The notes under the pieces were generated by a model, which did no database searches, was not told the DNA's origin, and saw only the letters and a program-made list of their open reading frames with translations. A stretch of 64,000 nt of DNA, taken from assembly GCA_002633005.1 (NCBI GenBank), contig NMRA01001032.1, positions 2,899-66,898 on the forward strand, given 5' to 3'. Origin of the DNA: Phoronis australis (Eukaryota; Animalia; Phoronida). Each line of letters opens with the position of its first letter. Position 1 is the stretch's first letter. A program made the translations under genes and the position numbers. Positions 3,780 to 61,190 of this stretch are shown here, piece by piece.

Positions 3780-3835
3780 ATGTTGTCTTGGCTTGCGTTG
3801 CTCTTAGTGGCCTCGACCGTAACCGGCACTGTCAG
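3780..3835 (+). CDS. Copy 1 exon 1, signal peptide MLSWLALLLVASTVTGTV(R)
   Basis: ATG followed by a hydrophobic core and AG|GTGAGA donor; same 56-nt exon at 46029-46084. An acceptor-like TTTACAG just upstream (~3761) suggests a 5' UTR intron. Confidence 0.8.
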
Positions 3836-4180
3836 GTGAGATTAAAATATTCTTAATGTTTAATCGTTAAATTTTAGCGTGACTTTATGTGACTGCGTTT
3901 GAAAAATGTACACATGAGAGATATAAAGACCGAAACGTTTTTTTACTTTAATTTCAAAAGGTGTCTTAAAACCCTGCAAAGCATGTGTGCAAAGCTCTCT
4001 TTTGTTTTTATTGTATATGAGCCATTTGAAATGAATAGTGAAGTGGGATCTGGTATCCAAGTGACCCAAAATATTAAACCCACATTCCGATTGAGTTTTT
4101 CAGATGGTGTCACGTTATTTGGTGACTGTAGTGGAGTGGCAACGACGGCTAAATACCCTTGAAAATGCATACATGCATAA

Positions 4181-4267
<87 letters not shown>

Positions 4268-7200
4268 CCTGGAATGTGGTTTGGGGACCGAAGGCCTGCA
4301 AAATCGCAATAAAGTATTTTTTTTTTTCTATTCTATTTAAACATTAATGACATGCTCCTCTGGGCATTTTCGTAAGAACTGCACTGCACATGTTGTATCG
4401 CGGGGTGAATGGACAGCTCATGGATAAAATGATATCTCTTGTACTGTGTTGAGTTACTTTGAAGTTGCACGGTTGCTTAATTCAGAGTTAAATTAAAATA
4501 ATTCCCCTTGAAATCCTGCAACCCTCCCCCGCTTTGAATATAGATTCGGTCAACCTTGCACGATTTTAATTTAATACTTAACACATCATTGTGAGTACCT
4601 GTAAGATATCAAAGCTATGAAATGAAGCCTCAATTGCATAAAAACATTCCGAATTATAAAGATTTGTATTCAATTCAACGTTTTAAATTCAGCCACAAAA
4701 TATATTCCGATACGGTCAGCCCCTACCAGCCCAGTTGTTTGAAAACTATCGTCAAAATACAGTTAGCTGGCACTGTGTATTGAGCTCCGTTAGACACCGA
4801 GTTTTCATACAGCCCGGGGGGTTGTTCTGCTAGTCACCTCGATGTGAAACTTGTATCAACATGATGAGCTAACGACCGTTGGGGTGCATGCAAAATATGG
4901 GAGCAAACCGACACACCCCTTACCCGGTGCAACCGCTTGGAGGATAAGATCAGATGTTTGAGATTGCTTCCCTCACTAAAATGGACATTCGATTGCTTGA
5001 CACTACACCATACAAGGAATTATTAACCTTGAAAACTGCGCAGACTGTATACGTCTGCTCTCATTATGAGATTTGTTTCCAAAATAGAATCCAGTAATGC
5101 CCGTCTATATTTATTCGGTTTTCTATCAAACGTTTCTCTTGCACTTTTGCAAAGAACTTTTAACATACCAAAATGACAGTAATGTTCTGTCGTTTACAAC
5201 AGGAGTGTGGACGACGGGATGTGGTGCGATTTCGTCATCGTCGGTGCGGGCACCTCCAGCTTAGGTCTCGCCAGTAGACTTTCTGAAATACCATCATGGA
5301 AAGTTTGCGTTTTTGAGAGAGGTAAGTAACACCTCAGTTGATATAAATCTGTTTTTTAATTAGGGGAGAAATCCCCAGTTTGCAGTCCACGGGTGGACTT
5401 AATGGAATTCAGGATTCACTCCTCCACGAACAGGATAAAAAACACCGTCGACATGCCTTCGGTACCCAGTAACTAAACATTTAGAAGTCGTAGTCCGACA
5501 GTAATCTCTACGCTTTTAGCGGTCGTAGATTCAAATCTACGTAACCAACTTGAACACAAAAAATGAGACAGTATCATCAACGTTCGTCTTAAACATACCG
5601 CGTGACACGATCTAGAAACCTAACTTTGTTTGCAACCATGTCTATATCGTACAATGCATTGCACTTCGCAAAACCGCCTTGAGGTGGTGATGTTGTAACA
5701 TCATGTCTAAAATCTCGTGTTCTGTTTCCACCAAGCTCTAATCTATTTAAATTGGCACGGGGTTTCGGTTGGTCATTTCTCCGGCCATCCTCTGGTGTTA
5801 CAGCGTACTTGGAATAACGAGCGCGTGCATCTGATTCACTCATGGAGGGCACTTGAATTATATTATTCCTGGAAGAAGGCATGTTATGAACCCGGGACCT
5901 TTCTGTTGCCAGTCCAGTCCTAGGCAACTGAGTGATATACATTATGCTTTCGGTGGTAGACCATGATATAACCAATTAGTACTGTTCTTTTCATATTTTT
6001 GTGGACCTATACATTCTGTTTAAAAGAAGGGTCCCAGTGGCCTCTTTCTCTGAATTATAAAAACCGTTCACAATGAGACCCTCTTCTCGAAGAGGAGGAC
6101 CAAGATAATTCTCTCCTTCTCCGATGAGTCGGGCTCCCATTTTGCGCAGCTCGCAGCTACTCGTCTACGCTCACCCTTAGCACACGGCTTACCTTGTCTG
6201 CAAACTCTAAAGATATATGCTAACGGAGTTAAAGACATCCAACACTTGAGACATTCGCTATACGTTGACCTGGGAGAGAGTAAGACAATTTGAACCGTGA
6301 TTTGAACCATCCAACCTTTCGACATAACGTAGATCTATACAAGTACGTACTGATCCTGAAGCAGTTAAGTTATATGGACCGTAGGCAAAATTCCCAGAGG
6401 GATCAGTCTAATACGACCACTTGGTATCTTAATATATTGGGATGCGTTTACCTATTTGAAGTTTTGACCTCACCTGTTCACTTTGTCTACAACGTCACGG
6501 TGTTTTGCAATGGTCAATTCATTCACAAATATTGTCACCTGTCGTCCGAGGAAGGCTCGTTTTTGTGAAAAAAGACCGTGCAATGATTAACATGTAAATT
6601 GTTCATGTTTGCGGTTTGGCGCACATACAGCAACTGCCACATAAAGGCGGGTGTTATCAGTCATGAGTAACAAACAGCAGTACTAGCTTTTGTTCATTGC
6701 CATCCTGTTACGTGCTTAAAGCGTTGAAAGTGCGCTTCTACTGTTAAGGATATCTCACTCTCCTTGCCTCTCCCTTGCCCTCCTCACTCAGCTCACTAGG
6801 ATGCCTGCTGTTATTGTCCACATTACAGGCCCAATGGAATCCGGAATGGAGAGCTGGTACACCAACAGCTACAAGTTTACCAGCCCTCACGATCCATTCT
6901 GGCTTACCCAACCGACGCTGAGAACCATGGTAACAAAAGATGGAAAATACCTGACCAACGAAAATAAAGATGGCCGCTTGATCTATATTCCACGCTTCCG
7001 AGGACGCGGGGGCACTTCTCGCGTGTACGGAGCCATAGCAAGACGCGCGAGCCCGGCTGTTCTCGACCTGTGGCCTGAAGGTAATTCTCAATCAAATGTT
7101 AAATAAAACATGCACAATCAATACAGTTAACAATACAGTAGGACCCCAAAATTTGGCTAACTTTAAAACATCGTATCTCATGAACAGTTATAAAAATTTC

Positions 7201-10200: not shown

Positions 10201-13200
10201 ATGGGCCATGCCTACTGGAAAGCTGTCTCTGTGCAGTTTACCTTGAACAAAAGGCTTACAAACTCTCAGTTCACAATCCGACTTACAGTCAAGTCCAATT
10301 GTCATCTTATTGCGTATCAATTGTTTCAAACTTTGGCCACCTAAATGACCAAAAGGACGATGCCACAACTCAAACTGTAAGTTAGTCTCATCTACTGACA
10401 CAGACTCAGTCATGGGCTTTACATTTAAGTAATACAGGCCATTGACTTCACGGCCTTTTGCAACTTCTTTACCAACATCCTTCATAATGTTACATTCAGT
10501 ATCAGTAAATTCTATGGTACCAAGTTTGCTGGTAGCTTGTGAAACGCTTAACAAACTGAATGACAGGCCTGGTACAAACAGAACATTTTCTCCAACACAC
10601 ATTTTGTGCTATTCCCGTTCAGGGAATCAAGTTCGAGTTCAACCGCTCCTTGGCCGGTTCCTTTTAAAACACGTCCATCCCTAAGCGTTACGTCTCTATT
10701 GTCCTGCAGCTCCGTAAACTCGGTATATTTTGCTCTGTCATTGCATATGTGTGTTGATGCTCCCGCGTCTATGGTCCATTCACAAGTTGACCTAGCACCA
10801 GTAAGCATTGCATTTATCAGCAAGCCAATAGACACCTCACTGTCACTGTCTTTAGTCGCTATGTTGGCTGTATCGGCTTTGTATTTTGTATCACTGCCAT
10901 CTTTGTTTGGACAATTACGTTTTATGTGACCATACAATTTACATCCATAACACTTAGGACCCTTGTTTGACCTAGCCTTTTCGCGAGCGACAAGTGCTTC
11001 CCCGGCTGACTGTTCGCTAAGTTTCCGCTCTTCGTGTAATAAACGCTCAGTCACTAGTTCCATCCTAGGCACCTCCTCGCAAGCCTCCAATGCTGTAACC
11101 AACACACCATACATATTGGGAAGACTTGCAAGAAGATGCACAACACGATCTCGATCGTTTACTGGACCACCAATTACTGCAAGTTCGCTAAAAAGCTCAG
11201 TCATGGATTTGATAGGAGCACTGACGTCATCACCAGCATTTAACTTCATTGAATATAGGTTTTTACGTAAATGCAGCTCATTTGCCCAAGTTTTCTTTTG
11301 AAACTGGTTCTGAAATGTGTGCAACACGTCACAGGGATCCACAGGGTCTCCTAGTATGTACAACAGACTAGTGTCCACTGAGAGAACTATGGTAGCACGT
11401 GCTTTGTCCCTTCTTACATTGAATTTCTCAAGTTTTGAAGCATCATCTCCCGAAGAAGGAACTTCCTTACCCGCGACAATGTTCCACAGGCCATCTTTCA
11501 TCAGCGCCATTTGACACCGAACCTTCCACGTCGCATAGTTTTTACCAACCAGCGGTGAAATTACCCGAAATCACTGATTTTTCCGCCATCTTTGATTTTT
11601 CAAGTCCAAAACAACGTCACTAATCAACCTATTAGTGGCACACAAAAATCGTCCATAACCTTTTGAAATATGTCACTTTTTGGTTGCAAAAATGAAACCA
11701 CAACACATCGTGAGAATGACCTAATCTATTGTGAAAAAGAGACTAACTACAACGAAACAACTAATCGTAATAATGCCGTTGATGTAACGTAGAAGGAACT
11801 TAAACTAATAAATGATTTTCAACACAAATTCTGCAGACTTTCCACTATCAAAAAGTGTACTAACCTTTATTTTGTTGAAATCTGTAGTTTGCAGGTATTT
11901 GTCTAAATACAGAGACGTCTCGAGAAGGTCCCACGTAACCGCCACTGTTAAAATACACGCCCATTTCGTATGTGATAGATACTGGCTGGTTAACCGTAGA
12001 AAGTTTTACATTTGTTAATGCAGGATGGAAACATGAAGACATGACGTATTACTACAAGAAAGTTGAGGACCATTACTGCCACTATGATTCAGAAGAAGCC
12101 ACCGGAATTTCGTCAGCGGATTGCGAGAAATGGCACGGTAAAGGCGGGCCGATGCAACTCAATTCACAGTTAGAGGTACCGTACCGCCAGGATTGCACAT
12201 CCCTACACAAGAGTTAAAAGGGACTCTTTTTTGGCTTTGACTCACTTTGAATAATAGACCGGGCTCAACATATGAAACCAAAGGGTACGACCGTGAACCC
12301 AGTTATCTTCTCTTTCCCTAATTTTACAGTCAAGGGGGGAACGTGGGTTAAAAAGGTAGAAGGGTGTAGGAGTCGAGCGGGCTCAAGGATAATCTTACGT
12401 ACTTCCATTTACAGGAAGCCTTCCACCTGTTCCCGAGAGAGATGAAATACCTTTGTGAAGACAAGACGAAGCCTTGGAATGGTTACAAGCCTGATTACAA
12501 CGGTCCAGTGGAGGACAGGTACAAATACTGAACACACGATTTCCCCATACAGTTAGCAACGATAAACAAGAGCTTTGGAACAGGGAAGGGCGAACAGCAA
12601 CGAATTTTCTGGAGGTTGTCGTTGCGTAACATCCTCACTAATAGTCGCCTGACATATGCGGGGTTGCTGGGGGGTTGGTTCAATCTGGGTCGAAAATTTT
12701 TTAGATTGACGGGCGTGTAACACCCTCACTAAAAATCAGGCAAATAGGTGCGCAAGAACGTGATGTCAATATTTGTGACAACTGTAAGGAATTCTATATA
12801 GGACTCGCACAGAGATGCGTCTGTGACAGGTTGAAAAAACATCTCACCTCAGAGAAAAGTAACATATATAGGCATTGTATTAGCTACAATCACCAATTTC
12901 AAGAATGACGATCAATCACCAGCATTTCACACGTGATTATATTCTATTGTTGGCACTTGAATAGTCGGTGCCAAAATATAAGACAACAAATTTAATTTTC
13001 AATAAATTCGAAATTGTCACAACTGTTTCCTGTTGCGTGAAATAATGGACTCAACTAAGTTCTCTGATTCTCCCACGCATTTATGCATTTGTTTACTCAC
13101 AAGCGTTGTGCTTGTCTATCATCATATCGTTATAATGCTCTTCTCTTTGACTAATAACATTTCATAATAAACTATATAAAACAACGACCTTATTTCAGTG

Positions 13201-16200
13201 AAAATGAACAGGAACTTGGTCTTTAGGTTAGGGGCCTTGCATGAAAAGATGCCTATTTATTTTCGAGACTATCATATCGAGAATTCAACGGAGGGTTTGC
13301 GATCAGTTTGTATCATAAGCAAAAGCAGAATTAGTAACGAAAATCCACAGTAAAGCAAATACACTATTTTCACAAGTCCACAAATGTGTAGAAAACTTAA
13401 TGTGCTGGACGAGTGGTCCCTATTTACGTAATCAGCCCATAATGTCTGCACTTCGCAAGGTTTTCACATTCTTTAGTACGATCGCAATGTGATGTCGAAA
13501 GCTATCTTTAAATTCAGAGTAACAAAATAACAAAATAAACATTCTCAAATTACTGATACAATCTGTTATTTGAAACATAAAAGAACTAAACAAATGTTTT
13601 ATACGCTACTGAATGAAGCGGGCCCCCAGTAATTGCAATAATGTCTTTGAGCCTCCAATATTATAAACGGTCCAGTGAACTGACGTGTCATTTTTGATCG
13701 CGTACGTAACACAGAGTGTCGAATAAACATACAGATGCAGCTGCTGTGGTTTCCAACATGGGGTTATGTATGGGGAGTGTCGACGCATACTGGACCCACC
13801 GCTACCGATTAAAGTCCATAAAATACCGTATTTGGTATTGGTAATACTTCTTAGCAATAGTGAAGACAAGCATGAAGCGCATTTGCTGCAATTTATTTTA
13901 CAGAATAAGCTGCAGTGTCTTCCAGCAGTACAAACTTCGCACTGATGAAGACTATAATCCGACTGAGGAAGCTCGCGCCAATCGCGCCTCTCAAACAGCA
14001 CGCGGGAGTAGTTTCACTGGCTACTACAAAGAAAACGCCAAGAAACCTTATCTGGCTATATCTGCACCAGTAACAGGTACAGTACCGATTTTGTCCTCCG
14101 CTGCGCCTTCATGACGCTCCGTTCGTATCGTACTTCCAACGATGTTGTTGAGTAGCGGGGAGGGCATATATGCAGTTTTGTAAAAATTGAGTACTTTGTG
14201 ACAGATTTTTGCAATTTAGTACACTGTCAGGTATAAGAAAAGAAGATTTAAAAAACAAAGTGTTCTGACTCCCTGGTGATCGCTAGGCACAAAATTCAAT
14301 GTGGTTGCCGCCAGAATGGAAGTTGGCGTATTTCGGCTATTATTATCACTAGAACAAATTATGTCATGTTTTCAATATTTTTGGGGGCGGGGAGTTCATT
14401 TCTGGAGTTCAGTTTAAGTTTTGAGGTCAATTCAAATGCAAAGTGATAATCTCAAGGCAAATGTCATTCACAAATAACTCAAACTTATGTTTGTTCTCAT
14501 AGACGTTACATCGTTTATTTAATGGGTATATCGATTTGATTGGCTACACAAAATCCTAAAATTACCATTTTTCAAAACCAGATTTGCACAGCATAGAACT
14601 TTATTTAGCTGACTGTGAAAATACTTGTAGATTGAGACATGTAGAAACATCCTCCTTCACTTATAAAAATGGCACATGTGTTACTACTGGGAAGAGTAGG
14701 GAATTTCTTTCTCGTCAGTGGCTGTATCGCCTATATCTCTTAAAGATCTTCTTAAATCGGAATGGTTTATTTTAAGGAACGTGACAACGAATGACAACGG
14801 CTTCCAAACGGATCCAATTACCGCTGTGCCTCCTAGTGGTAATTTAACTACCTGCGTTTTCCTTCTTGTCTTAATGTGTATCCATTGACGGACATTTCTG
14901 AAACAGCAAATTGATTTCTATAAAAGAATCAATGACACGTTTCTATTCTCGGAAGGGTTGAAGATATTGTATGCTATTCAGTGGCCATAATGATTATTTG
15001 CCACTCTGTTTGCGTTATCAGCCAAATAACACTAAAGATTATGTGTTCCAAATGGGACGAAGACGTTTGACTGGGTCCAATATCTGTGTCTCCCTCTTGT
15101 GGCAATTAATTTTTCAACGGTTGAATATAAGCTCTTGATGGGTTTAAAGGAATTTTTGGGAATTAAGTTATAATGATTCAGACAACAGCATCGGTCATGT
15201 TTCAGATGGATTTGACCTAGCTTGTTTCCCCTTGTGAACTTCCTTCTGTTTTCTTGTTTTTGTTTTCTTTGTCGTCTGCTTTTCCCTGTCCTCCAAACGT
15301 TTTGAAAATCATGTTGAAACGTGGCAGGTGTGTTTCTATTCTGAACTGCTTTGCACCCCCTAGAAGTTATTTCTAAGTTAACGAGCATTGGCCCGTTTAA
15401 GTCGGAATTTTTTAAAATGATGACGCAATGCACACCGAGGGGTTCATTTCAACGTTCTGCAGTTGCAAATAAAACGTTGCAAAGATGTTCATCAGGCTCA
15501 CCTTCACACAAGAGTAATCTTTAGCAAATGATATAGAAGCCGTTAAAGTATGCGATTCCCGAGGCGGCGGGGGCCAATTTGGTTCCCCTTTGACAAACAC
15601 ATATCTGGTTACAGGTTGGGACGCTTTGTTGGCGAATGCGATCTTATAGAGTTGCCCAGGACTCCGTGATATTTCCAGCAGGCGGCATTACTGTTTGTAG
15701 CAGAAGAACTGCAGCAGTTTGGGTCTTTTAGGGTTATCCGATTCTGAGCCATTTTACCCGCGGAAGTTACAACATTTCCTTTATTCGTTAGTCAGCACTA
15801 AAATAATGAGCAGACGCTCTTCATTTTTGGAGTTAATATAATCGGCTTCCAGTGGCCGCATTTGATTGAAAACCGTAACAAACATTAGAAGGCACTAGAC
15901 ATTAGGTTTTGCCTGACCGTGCACACACCACTGGACTTACGGTCTTTCGTCCACTCTGAGGAGATTTGTATGAGCAGAATAAAAGGCTGCTGGATATTTC
16001 AGGTCAGAAGTGCCACACATGGCAGAATGAACTTCATTCTGTCTCATTTTTGCTCCGCTCGCTTCCACCGATCAGCAAGTCAAACTGAAAATTCGGTGGC
16101 ATAAAACGCAAAATTGACACTTATCAACTCAAAGCCACCACTTCTTCTACAACGTACAACAAGCGATTGAAGTACTGCTTCCTATATGCTGGCGTATGTT

Positions 16201-19200
16201 AGTGATAAATTTGAGCTGTGCATAACTGTGAAAATAACAAAAAAAAATTGCGGGTTATTGCCAGGATAAAAACACGTTTTATTATTTCCTGATTAAGATT
16301 GATGTTTGAGATGCAACTCCTGAAAATCTCTATTATTTCTGATAAAATGGCATGTTGTGGGAGTCTATTCCAGAGTAAAACAGTAAATGGGAAGAACGAG
16401 TTTGCGTAGTATACAGTGGGAATGTGTGTTCTTTCAAAGGTATGAGAGTGGGCATTGCGTGATCTAGAAATATTTAGGGGTCTAGGGTATGTGTTAGGAA
16501 TGGCAACCAGTGTGTACACTGCCTTGTACATGTGAAACCGTTTCTTTTGAGCACGTCTTTCTTGAAGAGTGGGCTAGGTGCGAGTGGTGAGCATAGACGT
16601 AACAAATCAGCTCTGGAGTGATCATAATGGATGAACCTGGCTGCTGAACGCTATATTCTTTCTATCTTGCCAATATTGGAGCGTGTGGAGGAATACCAGA
16701 GGAGTGATAATCAACTGTGCGCCTCATCAATGAAGTGTAGGCCAAGGTGTTTGTTTCACGAAGTGCACATTTGAGGTTCCGCTTAATGAAGCCAAGAGTT
16801 TGTTTGCCTTAGAGATGATTGCGTCTATTTGAGTGTTCCATATTGAATTATTGGTAAGAAAGAGCCCAAGGTAGGGTGCATGCGAGTGGTGAGATGTGAA
16901 GACTGTGGCAGTATATCCTGGGGTAAAGTTTTCTATGGACACGTAGAATATTGCATTGGAAAACGACGAGATCCGATTTCCAGGATTTTCCCGGTAGGCT
17001 AGGAAGTCTAAATCTTTTTGATATTTTTTGCAAAAATGGGGGAAGCAATACGTCTTTAGAGGATTGAATCATCGAAAAAGACACGGACGTATGAAACAAT
17101 GGAATCAGGAAGGTATTTAATATATAGTATGAGGAGTGCAAGACCAAAGGCAGAACCCTGGGGCACCCCTGACTGAACTGGAAAGGAATTTGAGAACTTG
17201 CCATTGACGACGACACTTCCTTGTGGATGCTCGAGACACGACAAATATACTTCTATAGATTGCACACGTGTGGTCCAAAGTGCTTACATCCGTCTAGGTT
17301 TTATGAAATTCTGGATTACTTGAGGGCTGTTCGAAATCGCAGCAGATTAATCAGTCGCTTATCAACAGTGTAACAATGGTAGAAGGAGTTGCCGTTTTAA
17401 AGAAAAGTTTATATGCTGGCGAAGTAGTGGACTTACAACATGGTCGTAACTACCAACAAACCACAATCACTTAACCTATTTGCAATGTATACCATAAAAC
17501 TGCCGCCAAATTCTATTATGTGCAAGGTAGTCGTGGCTTGTGTACCACCTCATTAATTTAGAGAGTGTCCAATAGACTTTAGGGATATATACGCACTAAG
17601 TACAGTTCGGAATACGCATTGGAAAATTGTAATCAATTTCCACACCATATTGGATTAGTACGCTCTTGCTCCGATTTTGCCTGAAATTCACCCTAGGCCG
17701 GGTTTCTTTGAAGAGGCTGAGTGAAAACCAAACATGGTGGTACTTTTGATTTAGTCAGCAAGTCGTTCAATGACTGAAAATTTGTTCAGACTTGTTTGGC
17801 TATTGTCATCCCGAAATTCGCACCTGAAGGCAATTGAGGTCTCTGACAAGGACGACTTTTGTTCTTCATTATAAAGCTCATGAGTTGAGGAAATTTCTAT
17901 TGCTCGAAAGCTACATTTGATATGTATGAGGTAGCCCACTGCCAACTCCATGTTCTGATATGATGTATACATCTCTTCCGGCTTATAATTTTCTATCTAT
18001 CATTAACCCTACATGAAATTGTTACTGCATGTGTAGAGATCCTGTTCAACGAAGAGCGCAAAGCCATTGGAGTGACCTTCTGGGACGAAGAAAATGGGCA
18101 GACTAAAAAGGCATTCGTCCGTAAAGAAGTCATCGTTGGTGCGGGCTCTTTCGATACACCACATTTACTTCAGGTACACTTGATATTTACATATAAGCTC
18201 ATGCATTTCATGTTTTAATAACAATAACAATAACAATAACAATAACAATAATAATAATAATGTTTATTGTACATCTTAGGCTTTGCCTACTCATACATAT
18301 ATACATAAATTCAAACATATATTCAGAATATTTGCACGGAGAGCAGTTCTTCTCTTAAAGCCATAGCCCTCTGAATATACAATGCGAGGCGCTGGATGCT
18401 GTCATGATTTTTCTGTTGGAATAACCTAACAAGAGAGTAGTTAACACTGACAAGCTCTGGAAGAAGATTTCGTGTAAGCACTTCAAGAACAGGGCATCGA
18501 CACATGAAATGAGGCCCATCTTCAATTTCACCCAGACAGCCTATGCCGCATATTCTCTCACCTCTAGGAATACCCATATGTCTCCCTTTCTCTATATTAA
18601 GTGAGTGAAGTGAACACCGAAATTGCGCAAGTATTTTTCTTGAATAAGCGCTTAAACAATTCACATATTGCTCGCTGACAAGATCACGTTTAATAAGACT
18701 ATAAAATTCATATTTATTTGAGCTATCTATTTCCAGTTGTCATTCCTGTACGCCATAATCCAGTAATCTCTGATTAAATACCATAATAAACTCAGCACTA
18801 TTGCCTGGGCCAAATAACCACACTTCTCCATAGCCGTACCTATACAAAATTTCTTTGACACGGTGTGCCCAGTTACAATTACCATTTTCACTTTGTTCCC
18901 TTAGCATACTATAACATTTCAGTGGGTACCTATGTTCTTCCATATCCAGAAATTTTGTCCAATTGATGATTGGTTTACACATATAGTTTGTAATTAACAA
19001 TTGTCTCCCACATTCACCACGAGCCATAGCATTTGGCGTTTTAATACTCAATCTCAGAACATATTTACAGAAATCATTATGAACTTTTTTTAATAAATTC
19101 ACGCATTGATGTTTCTCATATTTCTGCACCATATGTTAACATGGGCATTATCATAGAGTCAAAGAGTTTAAAATGCACTCCATGGGAAATACAGTTAAGT

Positions 19201-22200
19201 TTTGACAGAGTGGCTTTAATAACGTTCATTGCTTTTCGAGCTTGGCTTGCAAGTACTCTACAACACTCTGTCCATTTAAGTCTGCAGGAGAATGTGACTC
19301 CTAGGTACTTGTACTACGATTTGGTATCTACTTTCTTATCGCCAAAACCCACCTTTCATTACTTGAAAGTATGCTCCCTCGCTTAAATACCACAACATTC
19401 GTTTTATCCAAATTAACTTGCAAATTCCAGTCTCGACGAAACTTTTCGAGGACATTGAGCTTCATCTGTAGCCCAGCAACGGTATTCGACACCAGCACTA
19501 AATCATCAGCAAAAAACAAAGAACCTATTTCACAACCCTGAGAGACACGTATACCTCTGCCTACATTTTCTCTAATATCTGACACTAATGTGCTAACAAA
19601 CACCGAGAACAGCCTGGCATTAAAACACATCCTTGCCGGACACGAACTGTACAGTTGAAATATGGTGTGGTCTGGGACTGTACCATAACACACGATTGTA
19701 TAGAGTCGTATGTACTGCGCAAAATGTTAAATATTTTTCCATGCAAACCTTTGGTTAAAAAGGCATAAAATAAACGGGAAATATCTACACTATCAAATGC
19801 CTTACTAAAATCAACGAATGCACAATATACTTTCCCATTCCGTTTAGTGACATGTTTCTGGAAGATACACTGTAGGTTAAAAATGTTATCGATTGTAGAA
19901 TACCCAGTCCTAAAGCCTGCTTGTTCTTCCGGGATACATTTCGTATTATTCGACCATTCAATTATACGAGAATAAAGAATAGTTGTAAAATTTTTATTAA
20001 TACTATCTATAACGGAGATCCCTCTGTGGATTAAATATGTCTCCTTCTTTGATACTTTTTGACCATTGGGATGGATAATGCCCGGTATGTACATGTATTA
20101 TGACGTATGACATTTCACGAGTAAACTATTTTTCATCCACTATCATGTGCTCTTTTATAGTTTTATTTCAGTGTTCATAATGCTTACAATTGATTGACTT
20201 CGCCGACATTGTTGGGTCAACCAGCCAAGACATCTCAAAGGCTTTTGGTGACGACTTCCTGCTAACAAACCAATCAGATGCTGGTTGACCTTACAAAACC
20301 GGCGAAGTCAATCAAGTGTAGCCAAATCTTTTAAATATCCCGTGAAAGACAGAAGCAACCAAGAGTTTTCATATATGCAGATGACGACGTAAAACTGATT
20401 TAAAGAAAATCCTCCAGAAGCACTTCCTGAAAATGTAGGCCCGATTATGCGTGCCTGTTGTTACCGAGGTTGGAATTGACAGTTTGCAATCTAACGAATA
20501 AGCCTAGTATACTAATTATTATATTGTTGATAGAACAGATGTTAAGTAAGTAGTAAACCAACCAACCAACCATCTAACCCATTTACCAGCCAACCAACCA
20601 TGCCAGCCAACGAACAACTGACGAAGCAACCAACCGAAGGACATTATACGTTTCCTTCGTACATTCCGTGTTATGAAAATCTTTCGATTGAAACTTGCCT
20701 GAAATACATAAATTTTGCTGCAGGTGAGCGGAGTCGGGCCTAAAGAGCTTCTCAAAGATATCGGCGTAGACCTTGTTGCTGAGAACAAGCATGTGGGCCA
20801 GCATTTATGGGACCATATCTCGGTACCGTACGTTCTAAAACTTAGTTCAGCCTCCGATGACTTATGCTGCGGCACTCCACCAAAAGTTGACATTGACGGT
20901 ACCGAATACAATACAGGGGATTTGGCCAGCATCAACGGTCCATTTTCCTGGATTTTGCATTATCGTTCTAACGTTTCCCGTGTTCCCGCTTCGATGTCCG
21001 ACATCCAGCTGTATGTGATGGGAAACTCCAAGCTATTTGACGAGACAGGTAATGTTATGACGATCTACAACAACGAGTCTAAAGGTCAAGACTGGGATTG
21101 TGTCCCTGTAATTTGTTGCTTAATACTGTAGCAGTCTAAATCACCTTCATATTATTTGGGAATCTTCTCATTCAAGTCTCTATAGTTCGGTGACACCTCT
21201 TTGTTTACACAAACTTCGTTGAAACACGTCTAGACGTTTTGTTTGAAAGCTTGATACTGGTTCTGTCTTAGTGTCAGAGTAATATCCTTTCTTCAGGTCT
21301 GCAGCTATGTAGTTAAACACCGAGAGACATAACAAACAAACAAACAAACAAATTAAAACACAAGCTATGTTTTGAGACTGCAGTTATCATTATCAGGAAA
21401 TAAGTTGAATGATCATATACATACCGCAATAGACAGTGAAATACACGTGACAGCGGGAAGAGGGTCATACAAGCAGAGAGTGTGAATGCAACACAATGTA
21501 GGACGCCCGCAACCCTATAGAAACAGAGCCAGAGTGCTCATTCAACACAGTTTTTTTGACTGATCAATAGTGATTCAGGGGACAGATACCTTGTGAGTCT
21601 GCTGCTGTGTGGAGACAATAATTCATCGTCTCAGAAGTGTCATAACTAGGTTAAACTCCTCTTTGGAAACGACGCGCTTACAATAATTATTTTGTCGTCG
21701 TTTGATTGGTTGATCTAATCACACTGCCCTGACACCTTGTGGGCAACAAAATATTTCAGGCTTTCTTTTCTCCAACATTGAAATTAAAATTCTTAATGAA
21801 AATGAAATTGTATTCTTGAACACTTTGTTCATTGGACTGGATAATGAATTACCCAAAGTTCTTATATCACCTCACGCCCTGAGGTAGCCGCGGACATGTA
21901 AGATAGGGGACATGTGTCCAATGATTGTCCATCTGGCCGTCTTTTGACGTTAGTCTTCATACAGCTAGCTGAGTGGTTACCACTACATGTAAGTGTGATC
22001 CTCACTATTTGGTATACACCTTTGTTGCTCCATAAAATAAATGGATATCGTTTCATTCAATTATTCATCCCCACATTCATTCATTATCCGTGCTTTCTCT
22101 CACTTATTAAGACATTCATTCATTCATTCGTTCGTTGTTCACAGGTGCGCTATGCACAGCTGACCCTCCTGAATACGAAGATGATGCACAAAACAAGCAA

Positions 22201-25200
22201 TACGAGGACTCCAGCGATACACTCGAAGGTATATCCAAATTTCGTCAATTTCTTGACCAAGATATTTTACTAACAGGTGTATTGAGTGAAGACGAGACAT
22301 GAGCAGTTTCGAAATATAACCGTCCTTTATAATATCTCTTGGTGATCTATTCTTGCTGACAAATATGCCAGAAGTTTGCACGAGTCTCTGCCAAATCAAT
22401 GAATAGAACTCTCCGTAAACAAGGTTATACATGTAAATATTGAATTGAATTCCAAGTCCCACGCGAAACCCATACATTCTAGCATTAAGGCTTGCTTTCC
22501 AGAGATTTCACATGACTAACATTGGGAATAGCTGGTTGTCCACTCGGATTAGTTTTGATTGATATCTTTTCAGTTTCAGTCTGAGAGTCACTTTTGACAA
22601 CCTATAAAACTGTATATTACGAGTTTTTCAACAAGGCATATTTGGGTGCTAAAATGATATTTTTGTCTAAGAAATATTGGTTATGTAATTAATAAAGATA
22701 GTTCCATCGAAGTTAACCAAAATTTATGCACATGTACTTTTAAATCCTGAGTGTCAAACTTGTTTACATGTACTTTTGATATCTACGTGTATTTTTAGAT
22801 GATGCTTACCTCTTCTGGTCTATGGTCAGTGTCCTGTAAGGCTTCTAAAAATTCTGATATCATATTGTAACCACCAATGATATGAATAGATAAGATCATG
22901 TGGTTTTTATTAGCTAATTAGCTAATTGTTGACTGAGTACATCGTTATAATTTGGCAGAAGTCGGGTGTTGCAGCACCTGTAGTCTGTCGTTAACAGAAA
23001 ACGTTGTTTTTGTGTGTTGCGGCGAACATTTTACCCCGATGATGTGGAATAGAACCAGATGTCCCACTTTTAATACAGATGTTCTGCTTTTCAATCAAGT
23101 TGTCCCGTTTTCTCATTCTCGAATGCTGATAGTTATGCAACTGGTGTTCCAAATAACAGTATCTCTTTCTTATGAATGTTTGATTTTCCAGAAGCCATTT
23201 TCCTTAGTAATATAACAATTATAAAAATATTTTCCAATGTCTCTTGTTCATTGTAACACACCTCACTAATTTTAATTATTGAAAAATGGGTTTATTCCTA
23301 GATTTCGCTTTAATGTAATGAGCTATCCACGTGCTTCAAATCTACAAAAACATGTTTTGCCATGTTTATCTTTCGGTAAACCCTTATCCCCATATTTCGG
23401 ATAGATAATTAGGGTATTTGGTTTATCACGGTTTTTGTACATGTAAGTGTCATTGAACACTGATTTTTACTAAAAAATGTAGATGTATCAAACGGATGAA
23501 TGCCTGACTAAATTCTTCACAGCAACTCTGAGACATTCATTGTCTAAAACCATTGTCTTTCTCCGGTAGCAATCCTTTGAATCTGATGGCTTAATTAGTT
23601 ATTTATGTAATGTCTACCTCTGTATCATTTTCTTTTTTATCACATCCCAAATTCGTTGACATTTCAAGCTAATTAGTTGATTGTTAGATAAATAATGAGT
23701 CAATTAGTGCATGCAAAATAAAATTTGTATATGAAATTAATTTCTTATCTTTTGTTTCTAGTATAATCATACACCATCGAGAGTTCATGGAGGACTTTTT
23801 AATATGACTCTGATGCAATGCGCTTGAAAGCAATTCGGTGAAAAACGGAAGATTTGCGAAAAGTTTTACTATAGTAAATTTTTCACTTTCCCATTGCCTT
23901 AGTGTGATGAAAAAAGACATTCCATTCCTAGAGTTCTACGATAACTTTAAAACAATGTGTATACCTGTGAGAAAAATATCATTTTGCTTTCTGATATTGA
24001 CTTCTTTAGGTACTATTCGTATCATCGATCAGTGGCCTGAGTATCGCGGCCATGTCAAAGCAGTCACTTCACACATATTTGACAAGCCGGAGATAGAGTA
24101 TGGCTGGGGATACACTGAAGATGGGGTACCGACAGAAGAGTTCAAGAAGGTCTCCAAGCTTGTCCGAGATCAAATTCGCCTGTTGCGCAACATGTTCTTT
24201 GGAAAAAACGTCAGCAAAGAGTTAAAAGAACTGGTTTTAGACGAAGTTGCACCAGGGCTGGATATAGATACGGACGATAAGTTGGACGCATGGATGCGTG
24301 GAATGCTGGTGTCTGCACTTCACCCTGTCGGTACATGCAAAATGCCAGACTGTGCTGATGAGTTTCTACAAGTAAGAGGAGTTTCCAATCTCAGAGTGTG
24401 TGATGCCTCAGCCTTCGCAACACAAACCGACGGAAATCCAGCCGCTACTCTATTCGCTATGGGCGAAAAACTGGCAGACATGCTCAAGTTCCAATATCTG
24501 AAATACGTAAACGTGGCAGTTCGTAAAGAATTAGCGATTCCAAGAGATAAGAATACCTTCAATTCCGAACTACCCCCCGGACATGCTGCAGTTGACATGG
24601 GTCCAGTGAAGTCAGCTTCAAATTGTATGGACGTATCAGTGTCCTCTGAATGGATTTCAACAGGAAAGGGTACTTCAGCTTTGATTGTCAAATGGTCTTT
24701 GGTATGCGTCAAGGACACCAATGAGCGTCAGATTGCAGACTTAGTAGCTATGGCTACATTGGGAACTGATCCAAGAGACGGTTGCAATGCTCAAGGTTAT
24801 CCAAAGTTCAACAGACCAGAAGCGACTCCCGATCCAAGAGAGCCAAGCCCAAAGCATAAAATATCACGTCACGTTTTTGCCGTGTGGTGCCAATCGTTCC
24901 CTGGTGTGGATCCCGATACACTATGGACACAAGCTGGTTCGTGGAACGGAGAAGGTGGCAGGTATGTGCTCAGACAATTTAGCTGAAATGGTATACTATA
25001 TGTAAAGCAACATGAATTTTAATATGTATATAGGTTGGTCAAGCGCATGCAGGACCAGAGCGACAAGTCTCATGCTGTTTTACAATACATTTACCTATAA
25101 ATAATTACCATAATCTACTTGGAAATAAAAGAAGTCTGTGATACTTATTATAGAAGACAAGAATCCAAACATAATATTTCTGTACGTCACCTGTTTCTTA

Positions 25201-27345
25201 ACATCAGTTTACGCATTCGTACTTATTATTACAGAATTCCTGGGTCTGAGCACTGCTTCACCCTAAACTGCCAGCCGGAGATGTGCTCCATTCTTGTACA
25301 CGTGGATGACTCCAACCGGGAATGGATTTACAAAGAGCCCAACATAGACCTTCCATTGGTGGACTACTATTCGACAAAAAAGGTGGTCGACCTGAACCCA
25401 GGATCTTCGGCATTCTTCCGCACGGGATCGATGATCTCCAATCCAGGTACTGACTGGTATGAGGAGCTGGCCGGATATCTCCTCGAGAGTGTGTATTGGA
25501 GCTCAGGTCGTCGCTTGTCCCGTGAGTATCCCCCGCTCAATACACTCCCCGGCTGGTGGACACAGCTGTCCAACGGCCTTCTCTACTACGAAACTAAGAA
25601 CCAGATTTATTCAAGTGAACACGTGGCATCTTTTGACCTGGATAATACCATCAGCAAAACAAAAAGTGGCGAAGATTTTCCTGTCGACGAAAATGACTGG
25701 ATGTTCACGTCTGACAAAGTCAAACCCAAAATACAAGATAACAAGAACAAGGGCATCAACAACGTAATCTTGAGCAACCAGGTAAAACATTCAGACGTAA
25801 ACCAGCTACATCTACATTTTCAGGGTATTTTAAGGCAACGATGTGATATCCAAAAAAGATCTGGTGGGTTTGAATATTAACCACCTAATAACGTAAGTGA
25901 GCGGATCAATTCCTTTTAGTAATAATTCAAACAATATACATAGGCTGAATTCAAACGAGGTGGCTAAACTTTGTAAATAGTTCACTTACGTAAAGTTTTA
26001 AAGTGTGTGCAGGCTCACTTCGGTGGCGGTCTTGGTAAGGCCTACAGATCATCCATATAGAATGCAGCAGATGCATTTTGTGCCTTTTGCTGATTATTAT
26101 AGACTTCCATTCTGCAGTTAAGTGGGGTAGGGTAGAATGCAAACTAAATGATGGTTGCACTAACTCCGTCTCAGTGATTGTTCAAAAATATGTAGAGCCT
26201 CCCTTGGTAACTGTACATCATATCCACCCCATTACGTATTTGTTGCAGGCAGGCATCGGGAGCGGCTCTCAAAATAAAGACGAGTGGATGTCAAAGATTG
26301 AAGCCATCACCACTGAACTGGGTGTACCCATGTTTGTCCTAGGTGCCACAGGGTACAACAATCTTCGCAAGCCTGACCCTGGAATGTGGACATATTACAG
26401 GCATGAGTATATTTATCTTGTGCACGTTGTTTTTGGCCCCATGGATTTCAGATTGACGGTGTTTCCTTCAAATTTTGCTTGCCTAGCATATAAAATATGT
26501 AATAAAGATAGCTAAATGTAGTTTAGAAATTTCTCAGTATTTCAGTTAATAACAACTTTTTAACACTGCAAATCTCTACTTTTCACATTTTTTGCACACC
26601 GTCTCTGCTTAATATTATGTTTTATCTAATTTCCCTTCGAGGACCGCGTGAAAGACTATTTATTCGCTTACCTAAATGTCAGAATTAAATGTTAAGGTTA
26701 CGGGAGACAAAAAATGAGGGGGGTCGAAATTCAAACCAGATGCTGGACTGCACGCTCTGTTCTCTAAAATATGGTTAGGAATTATATTTTATATCCTCTT
26801 TGGCATTATGGATTGTCAAAAATGGAACTTGTAGGGAAACATCGAAATCAAAATAAAAGGAAAACGAAAAGATCATTTAGAGAACTGTCACAGATTTTGA
26901 GATTTCGTCGTGAACATTTACATTGAAAAAAATAAAATATTGTTGTTCTTAATAGCGTTGTTTTCATACAAAAGTGTCTTTACCTTTTTGTAAATATCCT
27001 TAAAATGAAATACGGTAGTCATTTGACCCAATTAATAGGAGAATGGTATAAAATGAACGATTGTTACTTTCACACAGTTGAATTCTGTTAGCTTTGTTGT
27101 TTTTTTGTGTAAAATCTTTACAATATTTTTGAATGTCCTACTTAACTTACATACAATGTCCTTACAGCTGCACACTGAATCAGTTCAAGACCATTGACAA
27201 GTCCACTGCGGTGTATGTTGGGGATGCGGCTGGTAGACCAGGAGATCATAGCGACTCGGACAAAGTGTTTGCCGAGAACGTTGGTATCGCTTTCCACACC
27301 CCTGAGGAGTACTTTGAAGGACAGAGGGGACACACTGAACTTTAA
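3780..27345 (+). CDS. Gene copy 1 (13 coding exons, 1076 aa): signal peptide + GMC oxidoreductase + SRPBCC/START-like + PNKP-like HAD phosphatase + HTEL
   Basis: Exons 3780-3835, 5203-5321, 6829-7080, 12024-12175, 12415-12518, 13904-14076, 18037-18173, 20724-21048, 22145-22228, 24010-24961, 25235-25781, 26249-26400, 27168-27345 join with matching phases. Introns are GT-AG except one probable GC-AG. Total 3231 nt, ending TAA. GMC motifs appear in canonical order. Exons 1-8 are confirmed by the paralog downstream. Confidence 0.85.
4191..4267. repeat. (AC)n(AT)n compound microsatellite in intron 1
   Basis: Directly visible. Confidence 0.98.
5203..5321 (+). CDS. Copy 1 exon 2, GMC FAD-binding Rossmann start
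   Basis: SVDDGMWCDFVIVGAGTSSLGLASRLSEIPSWKVCVFERG; CAG acceptor, G|GTAAGT donor. Confidence 0.92.
6829..7080 (+). CDS. Copy 1 exon 3, GMC N-terminal domain
   Basis: GPMESGMESWY...IYIPRFRGRGGTSRVYGAIARRA...WPEG, a variant of the GMC RGxxLGGSSxxN motif; conserved in the paralog. Confidence 0.92.
7519..7682 (-). repeat. Copia 3' LTR
   Basis: TG...CA ends; adjacent CTCTCCTCA is the polypurine tract on the minus strand. Confidence 0.95.
11661..11824 (-). repeat. Copia 5' LTR
   Basis: Seven mismatches to the other LTR by my count; followed on the minus strand by PBS-like GGTTATGGAC. Confidence 0.95.
12024..12175 (+). CDS. Copy 1 exon 4
   Basis: GWKHEDMTYYYKKVED...WHGKGGPM matches GMC GWxxxxxxPYFKKxE and HGxxGP motifs. 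Confidence 0.92.
12415..12518 (+). CDS. Copy 1 exon 5
   Basis: EAFHLFPREMKYLCEDKTKPWNGYKPDYNGPVEDR (GMC DxNG motif); paralog exon at 54946-55049. Confidence 0.9.
13904..14076 (+). CDS. Copy 1 exon 6
   Basis: ISCSVFQQYK...ARGSSFTGYY...ISAPVT; paralog exon of the same length at 56904-57076. Confidence 0.9.
16141..17270 (-). mobile_element. 5'-truncated decayed LINE (CR1/L2 group), RT 3' part
   Basis: SGVPQGSAFG, FFDD and C-terminal NSFFPFTVLLWNRLP; many frameshifts. Confidence 0.75.
18037..18173 (+). CDS. Copy 1 exon 7
   Basis: EILFNEERKAIGVTF...RKEVIVGAGSFDTPHLLQ matches GMC EVIxxAGxxxxPxLL. Confidence 0.93.
18217..20100 (-). mobile_element. 5'-truncated LINE (RTE-X-like) with (TTA)n/(TTGTTA)n tail, copy 1 intron 7
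   Basis: EEQAGFRTGYSTIDNIF, AFVDFSKAFDSV, RQGC, LFFADD, C-terminal HSLNIEKGR...C..C...HF...CP; AATAAA then a TTA tail on the minus strand. Absent from copy 2 intron 7. Confidence 0.85.
20182..20323. mobile_element. Small hairpin MITE (Tourist/PIF-like ends)
   Basis: TTGATTGACTTCGCCG...GGTCAACCAGC pairs with GCTGGTTGACC...CGGCGAAGTCAATCAA; right end TGTAGCC. Confidence 0.65.
20724..21048 (+). CDS. Copy 1 exon 8
   Basis: VSGVGPKELLKDIGV...VGQHLWDH matches GMC SGIGP and VGxNLxDH motifs. Confidence 0.93.
22145..22228 (+). CDS. Copy 1 exon 9, acidic 84-nt symmetric exon
   Basis: Pyrimidine-rich CAG acceptor, open phase 1-1 frame GALCTADPPEYEDDAQNKQYEDSSDTLE, G|GTATAT donor. Not confirmed by the paralog within the window. 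Confidence 0.65.
24010..24961 (+). CDS. Copy 1 exon 10, GMC C-terminal domain plus start of SRPBCC-like region
   Basis: PEYRGHV...PEI, HPVGTCKM, VRGVSNLRVCDAS, GNPAATLFAMGEKLADML; reading frame stays open ~150 aa further to an AG|GTATGT donor. Confidence 0.92.
25235..25781 (+). CDS. Copy 1 exon 11, SRPBCC-like C-half plus N-half of PNKP-like phosphatase
   Basis: Phase-2 CAG acceptor matches the exon 10 donor; VASFDLDNTISKTKSGEDFPVDENDW (HAD motif I in PNKP context) and ILSNQ (motif II). Confidence 0.88.
26249..26400 (+). CDS. Copy 1 exon 12, PNKP-like phosphatase
   Basis: AGIGSG...KIEAITTELGVPMFVLGAT...RKPDPGMW (motif III). Donor is CAG|GCATGA, or a weak GT at 26407. Confidence 0.88.
27168..27345 (+). 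CDS. Copy 1 exon 13, phosphatase motif IV and HTEL-stop
   Basis: YVGDAAGRPGDHSDSDKVFAENVGIAFHTPEEYF, then EGQRGHTEL-TAA. Confidence 0.92.
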
Positions 27346-27941
27346 GAAGATACTGGTGACCACGAAGAAGGGTTCTCTGTGTGTGTTTAATAACTCTGAC
27401 GAAGGATTTCCGGAAAATGTGTGCATAACCTTTCACAGACTCGTGGGATATTTTGGTGTCGAAAAGACACGCAGAGTTCTCCTTATTCATTGTATGCACA
27501 ATGATCATGATTAACATTTTTAGAAAACACTGGTTGGCTAGAATTGATTGAGTTTGGTATTATTTGTGTTAATTGTCACACGCGGGAAGGTATGTTGAAT
27601 GAGTAAGGTGTCCGTCGAGTATTACTAATGCATACATATCTCAATTTTCTAAATGTGTATAGTAGTCTACAGTTGTCCGCGTGATATGGCGATGTCTCGC
27701 GCATGACGATACTGGATGTATAGCGTGTCACAATACACTCTAACATGACAAAGTTCAGTTTGTTTATTAGAGGATTTAGTAAAACAAGTATTGAAACCTG
27801 AACATCATTTCTTTTTGGCATTCAAGTTTCTCACGTTTCACTAAGTTCAAATTAGGTAGTGTTTTGCCCTGTTCCTCAGTTGATGTCTCTGCTGTCAAAC
27901 CCTTAGTATGAATTTCTACAAGAGACGCTTCATATCTTCTT

Positions 27942-32918: not shown

Positions 32919-33025
32919 CCTATACATGTTCTGTTTATGGTGAGAAGTCATTGTGTACACTGTTTCTGCAGAACTGTTTGAAGTACTAGCCAGGATCCCA
33001 AAGAACATCTTCCCTTCTACACTCA

Positions 33026-46028: not shown

Positions 46029-46084
46029 ATGTTGTCTTGTCTTGAGTGGCTCTTAGTGACCTTGGCCATAACCAGCACTGTCAG
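46029..46084 (+). CDS. Copy 2 exon 1, signal peptide MLSCLEWLLVTLAITSTV(R)
   Basis: Homologous to 3780-3835, including the donor and intron start. Confidence 0.8.
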
Positions 46085-61000: not shown

Positions 61001-61190
61001 GACTTGTGCTGTGGCAATCCACCAAAAATTAACATTAGCGGTACCGAATACGAAACACAGAGTGTGTACAGCATCAACGGTCCTTTTACCTGGATCATGA
61101 ATTATCGTTCTAACGTCTCCCGTGTTCCCGTTGAGATGACCGACGCCCAGCTCTATGTGGTGGGGAATTCCAAGCTATTTGAAGTGACAG
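46029..61190 (+). CDS. Gene copy 2 (partial, exons 1-8), paralogous secretory GMC oxidoreductase continuing beyond the window
   Basis: Exons 46029-46084, 47838-47956, 53730-53990, 54599-54750, 54946-55049, 56904-57076, 60178-60314, 60866-61190. Same phases and lengths as copy 1 (exon 3 is 9 nt longer); no stops or frameshifts seen. Confidence 0.9.
47838..47956 (+). CDS. Copy 2 exon 2
   Basis: WCDFIVVGAGTSSLSLAGRLAEIPSWKVCVFERG. Confidence 0.92.
49139..49773. repeat. Apparently identical 316-bp tandem duplication around a single N (49457)
   Basis: 49139-49454 matches 49458-49773; probable contig-overlap artefact. Confidence 0.9.
49800..50940 (+). pseudogene. Polinton/adintovirus major capsid protein pseudogene
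   Basis: FEFFIFGSGDEYIDLASIELYARAKI, YRAYLE, LHIAIFMQDWYLLNNV..KIGLVRSK, LAHIKVLEK.FAKYPLRR, NLFLGQ, AYNGSYSKNPLNF, EI..SRNVLLDF across frames. Confidence 0.8.
50942..51260 (+). pseudogene. Adenain-type cysteine protease remnant
   Basis: Follows the capsid gene directly; MRTAEIREILAND start, SSTVCGEC catalytic-Cys region, NDKLV end. Confidence 0.5.
51685..51950. repeat. Dispersed repeat, second copy at ~57705-57955
   Basis: Shared CCTGATGAAA.TACCATCTCG.AACGTCTA and TTCCAGAAAAATCACAAA.TTCACGATTTTTGAAATAC. Confidence 0.75.
52715..53192 (+). mobile_element. 3' fragment of an RNase H-bearing LINE with TSD
   Basis: VIVTDSQSML...IFSPDHAGVVGNERADKLAG (RNase H motifs), (CCAGATAA)2 tail, flanking TAAACGTCATTG / TAAACGTCAATG. 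Confidence 0.75.
53730..53990 (+). CDS. Copy 2 exon 3
   Basis: GPMESGMEKWY...RFRGRGGTSRVYGAIARRA...WPEG. Confidence 0.92.
54599..54750 (+). CDS. Copy 2 exon 4
   Basis: GWRHEDMTYYYKKSED...WHGKDGPMQLNSQLK. Confidence 0.92.
54946..55049 (+). CDS. Copy 2 exon 5
   Basis: EAFILFPREMKYLCEDKTKPWNGYKANYNGPVEDR. Confidence 0.9.
56904..57076 (+). CDS. Copy 2 exon 6
   Basis: TSCSIFQQYK...ARGSSFTGYY...VSAPVT. Confidence 0.9.
60178..60314 (+). CDS. Copy 2 exon 7
   Basis: EILFNEERKAIGVSF...RKEVIIGAGVFDTPHLLQ. Confidence 0.92.
60866..61190 (+). CDS. Copy 2 exon 8
   Basis: VSGVGPKELLKDIGV...VGQHLWDQ...GNSKLFEVT. Confidence 0.92.

Follow-up and report, generated by a model that had tools for sequence, protein, structure and literature searches.

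Gene model and transcript evidence

The gene described here lies in a 64,000-nt stretch of the Phoronis australis genome (contig NMRA01001032.1 of assembly GCA_002633005.1, forward strand), called the window below, and all positions are those of this stretch. The gene encodes a single protein that joins a GMC oxidoreductase, a middle region with an SRPBCC domain, and a phosphatase of the PNKP type (PNK3P). The gene model was put together from splice signals and by comparison with a tandem paralogue in the window whose first eight exons are intact. Its 13 exons, at 3780-27345 (+), sum to 3231 nt, or 1076 amino acids and a stop codon. There are no internal stops, and the protein runs from a hydrophobic N-terminus to a C-terminal HTEL, which reproduces the single reading frame proposed in a preliminary description of this DNA. 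Splice acceptors are AG throughout, and the donors are 11 GT and one GC (after 26400). The exons and their contents are:

3780..3835 (+): exon 1; predicted signal peptide, amino acids 1-19, by hydropathy; length, phase and ATG match the paralogue
5203..5321 (+): exon 2; FAD-binding GxGxxS (G33-G35-S38); junction to exon 3 (5321/6829) spanned by 6 reads
6829..7080 (+): exon 3; GMC flavin loop with the family-specific Tyr125 (codon 7026-7028)
12024..12175 (+): exon 4; GMC, invariant Cys161 and Cys176; junction to exon 5 (12175/12415) spanned by 16 reads
12415..12518 (+): exon 5; GMC, invariant Cys207
13904..14076 (+): exon 6; GMC, invariant Cys231; junction to exon 7 (14076/18037) spanned by 16 reads
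18037..18173 (+): exon 7; core of GMC_oxred_N (Pfam E 5.3e-7); junction to exon 8 (18173/20724) spanned by 3 reads
20724..21048 (+): exon 8; GMC substrate-binding domain; stranded RNA depth
22145..22228 (+): exon 9; acidic loop of GMC; junction to exon 10 (22228/24010) spanned by 11 reads
24010..24961 (+): exon 10, C-terminal part of GMC; Arg471 at 24018, His572 at 24321, Asp608, Asn610 at 24435
~24501-24773 (+): exon 10, partial module a, with the SRPBCC domain starting from ~24864; junction to exon 11 (24961/25235) spanned by 8 reads
25235..25781 (+): exon 11, remainder of SRPBCC, domain to ~25535; Tyr829, Lys833, Arg847
25635-25643 (+): exon 11, start of PNK3P; Asp919-x-Asp921 at these positions, then Ser965-Asn-Gln; junction to exon 12 (25781/26249) spanned by 13 reads
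26249..26400 (+): exon 12; PNK3P motif III, Lys1008; GC donor; junction to exon 13 (26400/27168) spanned by 21 reads
27168..27345 (+): exon 13; PNK3P motif IV, Asp1037 and Asp1049; HTEL at 27331-27342; stop

The RNA reads came from three runs of one study under the same species label, about 18-19% of each run, and were aligned to two stretches of the window, 20600-27700 and 4400-22300. Eight of the 12 junctions are spanned, by 3 to 21 reads each and on a single strand throughout. The splicing predicted earlier at 24961/25235 and 25781/26249 is among them, and the reads across the first of these come from two of the three runs. The non-canonical GC-AG intron at 26400/26401 is spliced in the same way in all 21 reads listed across its junction, which are placed 6 bases leftward within a 6-letter ambiguity. 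Three junctions inside the read-covered stretches (7080/12024, 12518/13904 and 21048/22145) have no spanning reads listed, and 3835/5203 falls outside those stretches. For all four the support is collinearity with full-length homologues; for the three of them among exons 1-8 it is also agreement with the tandem paralogue in exon length and phase. Identity of most reads to the window is 90-99%; a divergence of 1-10% indicates that they derive from other individuals or from a close copy.

One could suppose that two neighbouring genes, or a GMC transcript ending at a stop in intron 10, have been wrongly joined. An in-frame stop does follow the exon-10 donor, an AATAAA lies at 25124, and one of the three RNA runs has no reads across 24961/25235. 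Against this stand the 8 spliced reads at that junction and the full-length fusions found in many organisms. In addition, depth in the two bins holding intron 10 is about that predicted by exon share alone, which leaves room for no more than minor read-through to the intronic stop. A mis-joined gene is thus refuted as the main product, and as an account of the locus it is barely credible, although a minor truncated isoform is possible. The junction reads and the full-length homologues together establish one fused gene, as had been proposed, rather than separate transcripts.

Domains and predicted destination of the protein

A Pfam search with 12 exon pieces of the gene placed GMC_oxred_N (E 5.3e-7 and 0.1) and GMC_oxred_C (3.6e-19) in exons 3-10, both families scoring above the Pfam cut-off. 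PNK3P (PF08645) was found in the consecutive exons 11-13 with E values of 1.4e-11, 1.1e-8 and 1.3e-15, each above cut-off. The two outer domain calls of the preliminary description therefore stand by Pfam. The middle call stands by fold, and the Polyketide_cyc2 match expected there was not obtained: neither PF10604 nor any other Pfam family matched in any of 13 middle regions from family members.

Residue roles were assigned from what is known of PNKP, glucose oxidase, choline oxidase and fatty acid photodecarboxylase. The flavin adenine dinucleotide (FAD) motif GxGxxS is present as G33-x-G35-x-x-S38, and His572 and Asn610 align with the catalytic pair of other GMC enzymes. Both are kept in all family rows except P0036, where Asn is kept and the alignment of His is uncertain. 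Arg471, Gln606, Asp608 and Asn402 each occur in 34 of 34 family rows and are family-specific when set against 18 other GMCs. Tyr125 is found in 33 of 33 family rows, at a position that holds Asn in 17 of the 18 others. Four cysteines (Cys161, Cys176, Cys207 and Cys231) are invariant in all 34 rows. In fatty acid photodecarboxylase the residue aligned to Arg471 is a Gln on a strand of the substrate domain, at a position that we take to contact substrate or line the active site both there and in glucose oxidase. With these motifs intact, the GMC part is predicted to bind FAD and to be able to oxidise alcohols. The criteria for GMC proteins given in PMC6509819 include a GxGxxG/A/S FAD motif and an hGGpp motif, and GxGxxS together with the His/Asn pair makes two of the three criteria there. 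At the hGGpp site GG-Thr-Ser is present, with Arg as h in the window protein and Leu, Val, Ile or Met in distant members.

The best matches among solved structures are choline oxidase (2JBV/4MJW) and the choline dehydrogenase BetA (9LQ0). The family shares with them the GMC fold, GxGxxS and the catalytic pair, at only ~17-29% identity (25-29% to choline dehydrogenases). It differs in having Tyr for the flavin-loop Asn, its own Arg, Gln, Asp and Cys residues, a signal peptide, a KDEL-like end and two added domain types. Homologues score well below the choline-dehydrogenase cut-offs, with 158-188 bits against 732 for TIGR01810 (betA) and 188-224 against 605 for PRK02106. The Glu of the choline dehydrogenase sequence Asp-His-Leu-Glu, two residues after the Asp-His motif and presumably the residue that binds choline, is Ser364 here.

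Other GMC enzymes are fused to further domains. Cellobiose dehydrogenase is likewise a secreted GMC with accessory domains, but according to PMC6509819 its GMC is paired with a cytochrome and with a carbohydrate-binding module instead of SRPBCC and a phosphatase. An ESM Atlas cluster of 68 members, mostly nematode, also joins a GMC to a HAD hydrolase; the HAD families are different ones (PF00702/PF13242), SRPBCC and PNK3P are not listed, and its score of 0.88 makes it a lead only. This cluster may have arisen as a separate fusion of GMC and phosphatase, or it may be an artefact of gene models.

The middle region was called a START-type domain in the preliminary description, and modelling bears out the SRPBCC fold. 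A model of this region from homologue P0025 has a predicted local distance difference test score (pLDDT) of 85 and a predicted template modelling score of 0.87. Its later part is a helix-grip fold that matches XoxI (3CNW) with Z 12.3 and a root-mean-square deviation of 2.8 over 128 residues (Foldseek E 1.3e-7). The next matches are YPO0625, PYL9, Tfu_2981 and a fern hydroxynitrile lyase, and PYL 3OQU reaches Z 11.6; the sterol-binding domain of AsterA reaches Z 7.7 only. A profile match to Tfu_2981 (2LE1) gives E 2.2e-4. The helix-grip fold is common to the Polyketide_cyc2/SRPBCC set (3CNW, 2LE1, PYL, norcoclaurine synthase, 5E46 and 5GTE), at Z 9.7-12.3. The family is set apart from members such as the fern hydroxynitrile lyase (5E46) and lachrymatory factor synthase (5GTE) by Lys and Arg in the pocket and by a preceding partial module. 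That module, called module a (amino acids 632-722, about 90 residues), is modelled with three strands and two helices, and the fold matches fall mainly on the later domain. The protist version of module a resembles a full SRPBCC weakly (profile probability 25%), and module a may, on this slight evidence, be a decayed second SRPBCC copy. An ESM Atlas search with the middle region gave no usable match, and a motif-limited scan of metagenome contigs gave no relative of the middle domain. Among 1.84 billion representatives the SRPBCC domain has five relatives, the named ones eukaryotic.

The START-type pocket proposed earlier is therefore retained in part, as one complete SRPBCC domain plus a partial module, and its lipophilic character is not. 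Tyr829 and Arg847 are conserved in 23 of 23 rows and Lys833 in 22 of 23, across both domain orders, and the equivalent positions in 2LE1/3F08 hold Leu or Ile (Lys833) and Trp (Arg847). Basic residues in place of these hydrophobic ones disfavour a lipid pocket, and the pocket is predicted to be cationic and to suit an anionic ligand.

All HAD motifs I-IV of the phosphatase are complete in the window protein (D919, D921, S965, K1008, D1037 and D1049). Asp919, Asp921, Ser965, Lys1008 and Asp1049 are present in 19 of 19 rows with the same domain order, and Asp1037 in 18. The intact motifs suggest an enzymatically competent phosphatase. It belongs with the PNKP/Tpp1-type 3'-phosphatases (PF08645, TIGR01664, HAD-IIIA), with which it shares all four motifs. 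Three of five homologues scanned, among them the Diplonema protein, pass TIGR01664 (158, 153 and 148 bits against 107.65), and homologue P0004 matches mouse PNKP with E 1.9e-26. The profile of bifunctional PNKP, TIGR01663, is missed (136-163 bits against 503). The window protein has no kinase domain, ending 8 residues past the phosphatase, and no FHA domain. Compared with mouse PNKP, P0004 also lacks a nine-residue basic loop, which we take to contact DNA. An aromatic residue at 933 is found in 19 of 19 rows, and the Arg-Lys-Pro of PNKP is kept too. The family thus differs from PNKP/Tpp1 in lacking the kinase, the FHA domain and the basic loop, in being fused to a GMC, and in its predicted lumenal rather than nuclear location. 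The signal peptide, the KDEL-like end and the absence of a kinase led us to reject a role in DNA repair. Cleavage of phosphonates was dropped as well, since phosphonatases require a cap-domain Lys that the PNK3P domains lack.

Several features point to the endoplasmic reticulum (ER). The signal peptide was judged by a hydropathy window only. A hydrophobic leader is present in nine animal-group homologues with an intact N-terminus; six others seem truncated at the start. The protist and rotifer-type proteins, where complete, have an N-terminal leader or anchor. At the other end, 12 of 15 animal-group rows have xxEL or HDDL as their last four residues, the first letters differing between rows, and this variety of KDEL-like ends suggests selection on retrieval. 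In a reporter, His at -4 and any residue but Pro at -3 were effective, according to PMC2140024; HTEL lies outside the Prosite pattern quoted there and within the wider rules of that paper. N-glycosylation sequons number 9-15 in P0046, P0057, P0059 and P0062 against 2 in the window protein. The hydrophobic N-terminus, the four family-wide cysteines and the KDEL-like ends make a location in the ER or secretory pathway likely, as first proposed.

A family of fusions and its tandem copy

The fusion is not a single case, and it occurs in scattered animals and protists. A search started from a full-length homologue gave 24 matches, of which 13 carry both GMC and PNK3P. Named fusions come from Anneissia japonica, Antedon mediterranea, Amphiura filiformis, Mytilus galloprovincialis and Dendronephthya gigantea, and every one of them bears the label uncharacterised; other Mytilus records have been named automatically, for instance as PNKP or ecdysone oxidase-like. 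The crinoids, the brittle star, Mytilus and the octocoral share the order GMC-SRPBCC-PNK3P with Diplonema papillatum. A partial protein of Paramoeba aestuarina has the fusion plus an extra Polyketide_cyc2 domain (PF10604). Another order, GMC-PNK3P-Polyketide_cyc2-SRPBCC, occurs in the bdelloid rotifer Adineta ricciae (CAF1374367.1) and in three further proteins. Phosphatase motifs are degenerate in all four of these other-order fusions (P0046, P0057, P0059 and P0062), which carry a pseudo-phosphatase in progressive decay as well as a further SRPBCC domain, of Polyketide_cyc2 type. Stand-alone GMCs also belong to the clade, several with their own xxEL end (Acropora millepora, XP_044162855.1; P0052-P0058).

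Homologues match the window protein at 68-80% identity over the GMC, 41-75% over the middle region and 57-71% over the phosphatase, and identity drops to about 25-30% outside the GMC clade. Motif-limited pattern scans of prokaryotic and viral contigs found no close relative of this clade and generic GMCs only, at 28 prokaryotic loci (24-30% identity, with one short segment at 44%) and one viral locus. On sequence comparison, the fusion family spans three eukaryotic supergroups, including Euglenozoa and Amoebozoa. Since each homology search scored only about 8000 candidates, the true range is at least as wide as the patchy one seen.

In a quick midpoint-rooted tree of 52 GMC rows, with P0039 left out and long branches flagged, the 34 family rows form one clade apart from 17 other GMCs. 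Its support in the Shimodaira-Hasegawa-like approximate likelihood ratio test is 95, or 100 with the distant P0036. Similar trees of the SRPBCC and PNK3P domains (P0202 and P0002 left out, and P0062 also from the latter) recover the same main groups and several shared subgroups. These similar groups in three trees indicate that the domains were inherited together, and the simplest reading is one old fusion followed by rearrangement and repeated loss. The window protein clusters with the octocoral and five further rows. The animal part of the tree departs from species relationships, with Mytilus beside Amphiura and at a distance from the crinoids, which leaves hidden paralogy or transfer as possibilities.

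No characterised family with the GMC-SRPBCC-PNK3P architecture was found, in keeping with the preliminary description, and the named records carry automatic labels only. The literature covered, which left most subscription journals and all supplements outside its scope, held no account of the architecture or of six accessions. Each domain family is known; the combination, the GMC clade and a secretory PNKP-type phosphatase are apparently undescribed.

The tandem paralogue lies downstream in the window:

46029..61190 (+): exons 1-8 of the tandem paralogue; 442 codons, no stop, 346 identical residues (78%)

Its ratio of nonsynonymous to synonymous substitution is roughly 0.33, and the Asp-His-Ile-Ser motif reads Asp-Gln-Thr-Ser. 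Exon 9 onward was not found before the end of the 64-kb window. An intronic block at 15684-16047 is kept in the paralogue at 59038-59413 (71% over 382 bases) with no exon assigned to it. Its conservation is similar to that of other exon-flanking DNA, and further such blocks lie at 5322-5786 and 14766-15259.

Other features of the window, mostly repeats and transposon remains, are:

~4190-4270: CA microsatellite in intron 1
~7501-11825 (-): broken Ty1/copia-type long terminal repeat retrotransposon in intron 3, whose gag, integrase and RVT_2 parts lie in separate frames; direct repeats of 183 bp, 93% alike, flank it
~16202-17283 (-) and ~18326-20097 (-): reverse transcriptase fragments (RVT_1) like those of long interspersed nuclear elements, in introns 6 and 7; they draw many RNA reads from other copies
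30108-33505 (+): RVT_1 fragment (32990-33505) and open frames without Pfam matches, between the paralogues; probably decayed transposons
~37180-37940: assembly gap of 757 N between the paralogues
49717-50754 (+): three short open frames in paralogue intron 2, no Pfam match at E 0.01; they seem to us to resemble a Polinton/Maverick capsid-type protein

Possible activities and what the family means

We tentatively favour, with rather less than even confidence, an ER-lumenal enzyme that would oxidise a phosphorylated polar metabolite and then remove its phosphate. The GMC domain would oxidise a hydroxyl on a phosphorylated polar small molecule in the ER lumen. The cationic SRPBCC pocket could hold or rearrange the anionic oxidation product, and the phosphatase would act last, taking off the phosphate and releasing the product. 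The pocket residues suggest that the substrate is anionic and polar, such as a sugar, polyol or nucleoside phosphate. Oxidation is placed first because the GMC site is unchanged in stand-alone GMCs and where the phosphatase has decayed, and because of the cationic residues. ER retrieval and enzymatic competence are predicted from sequence motifs; the gene itself, its splicing, its domains, the intact catalytic motifs and the existence of the family are established directly.

A number of observations weigh against this account. The clade contains stand-alone GMCs, and all four other-order fusions have lost phosphatase motifs; coupling of the domains is therefore not obligate. If Asp608 neutralises Arg471, as it could, there would be no case left for an anionic GMC substrate. 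Both the aromatic residue and the Arg-Lys-Pro shared with PNKP fit equally well a nucleotide substrate unrelated to the GMC reaction. A full-length AlphaFold2 model from 19 sequences is poor in the GMC and phosphatase parts (mean pLDDT 49). Alignments were therefore used for the active sites, and they are also the source, in place of coordinates, of the inward orientation of Lys833 and Arg847. As for location, HTEL is not found in the main text of PMC2140024, and a KDEL-like end is missing in the Diplonema, Paramoeba and rotifer-type proteins and in 3 of 15 animal-group rows.

The chain could instead hold two unrelated lumenal activities under one signal peptide. One would be a nucleotide 3'-phosphatase, acting for example on the 3'-phosphoadenosine 5'-phosphate left by sulfotransferases or on 3'-nucleoside monophosphates from RNA digestion; the other would be a GMC plus SRPBCC enzyme working on a different alcohol. 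The phosphatase is indeed nearest to DNA 3'-phosphatases, keeps its aromatic 933 in every same-order row, and decays in one lineage where GMC and SRPBCC persist. The three domains nevertheless stay in one protein across three supergroups and two arrangements, which is unexpected if their activities are unrelated, and we consider this explanation unlikely. A reversed sequence, in which the phosphatase unmasks an alcohol that the GMC then oxidises (including phosphocholine to choline to betaine), draws on choline oxidase and choline dehydrogenase as the nearest solved GMCs and on the nematode GMC-HAD cluster mentioned above, itself a lead only. Members without a working phosphatase retain the same GMC site, though, and the betA score far under its cut-off, the Ser in place of Glu and the low identity to choline dehydrogenases all count against it. 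We regard this sequence as slightly less likely still, and the choline substrate of the preliminary description drops out.

Two further explanations turn on the SRPBCC domain. Plant PYR/PYL receptors gate PP2C phosphatases, and the SRPBCC domain might similarly bind the GMC product and switch the phosphatase on or off. PYL/PYR1 proteins are among the top fold matches, and in the animal group a short conserved linker joins SRPBCC to the phosphatase. PP2C, however, is not a HAD enzyme, the PYLs tie with many SRPBCC proteins, and SRPBCC is kept beside decayed phosphatases, which leaves a sensor improbable. The handling of a steroid- or lipid-phosphate in a hydrophobic START pocket would suit the ER as a site of lipid metabolism, and SRPBCC/START folds often bind lipids. 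The pocket positions hold Lys and Arg, the family-specific GMC residues are polar, and the fold is a minimal XoxI/PR-10-type one with only a low match to AsterA. We find a lipid role very improbable, and the steroid and lipid candidates proposed earlier drop because the pocket appears cationic rather than lipophilic.

Enlarging on the favoured order of oxidation followed by dephosphorylation, the family may represent an old ER-lumen pathway in one chain. The GMC would oxidise a sugar or nucleoside phosphate, the Lys/Arg/Tyr pocket of SRPBCC would carry out a lyase or rearrangement step, and a re-routed DNA-repair phosphatase would release the product; such a pathway would then have been kept by scattered aquatic animals and protists. 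We offer this fuller picture, as a whole, as possible but doubtful.

The family itself is real and conserved, and is built from known parts. The stand-alone GMCs and the relatives with a dead phosphatase are natural built-in controls within it, and the Tyr in the flavin loop of the GMC may show unusual flavin chemistry. GMC and phosphatase parts are 57-80% identical across cnidarian, mollusc and echinoderm members. This conservation, together with the reach of the family into Euglenozoa and Amoebozoa, suggests a conserved piece of ER or secretory metabolism.

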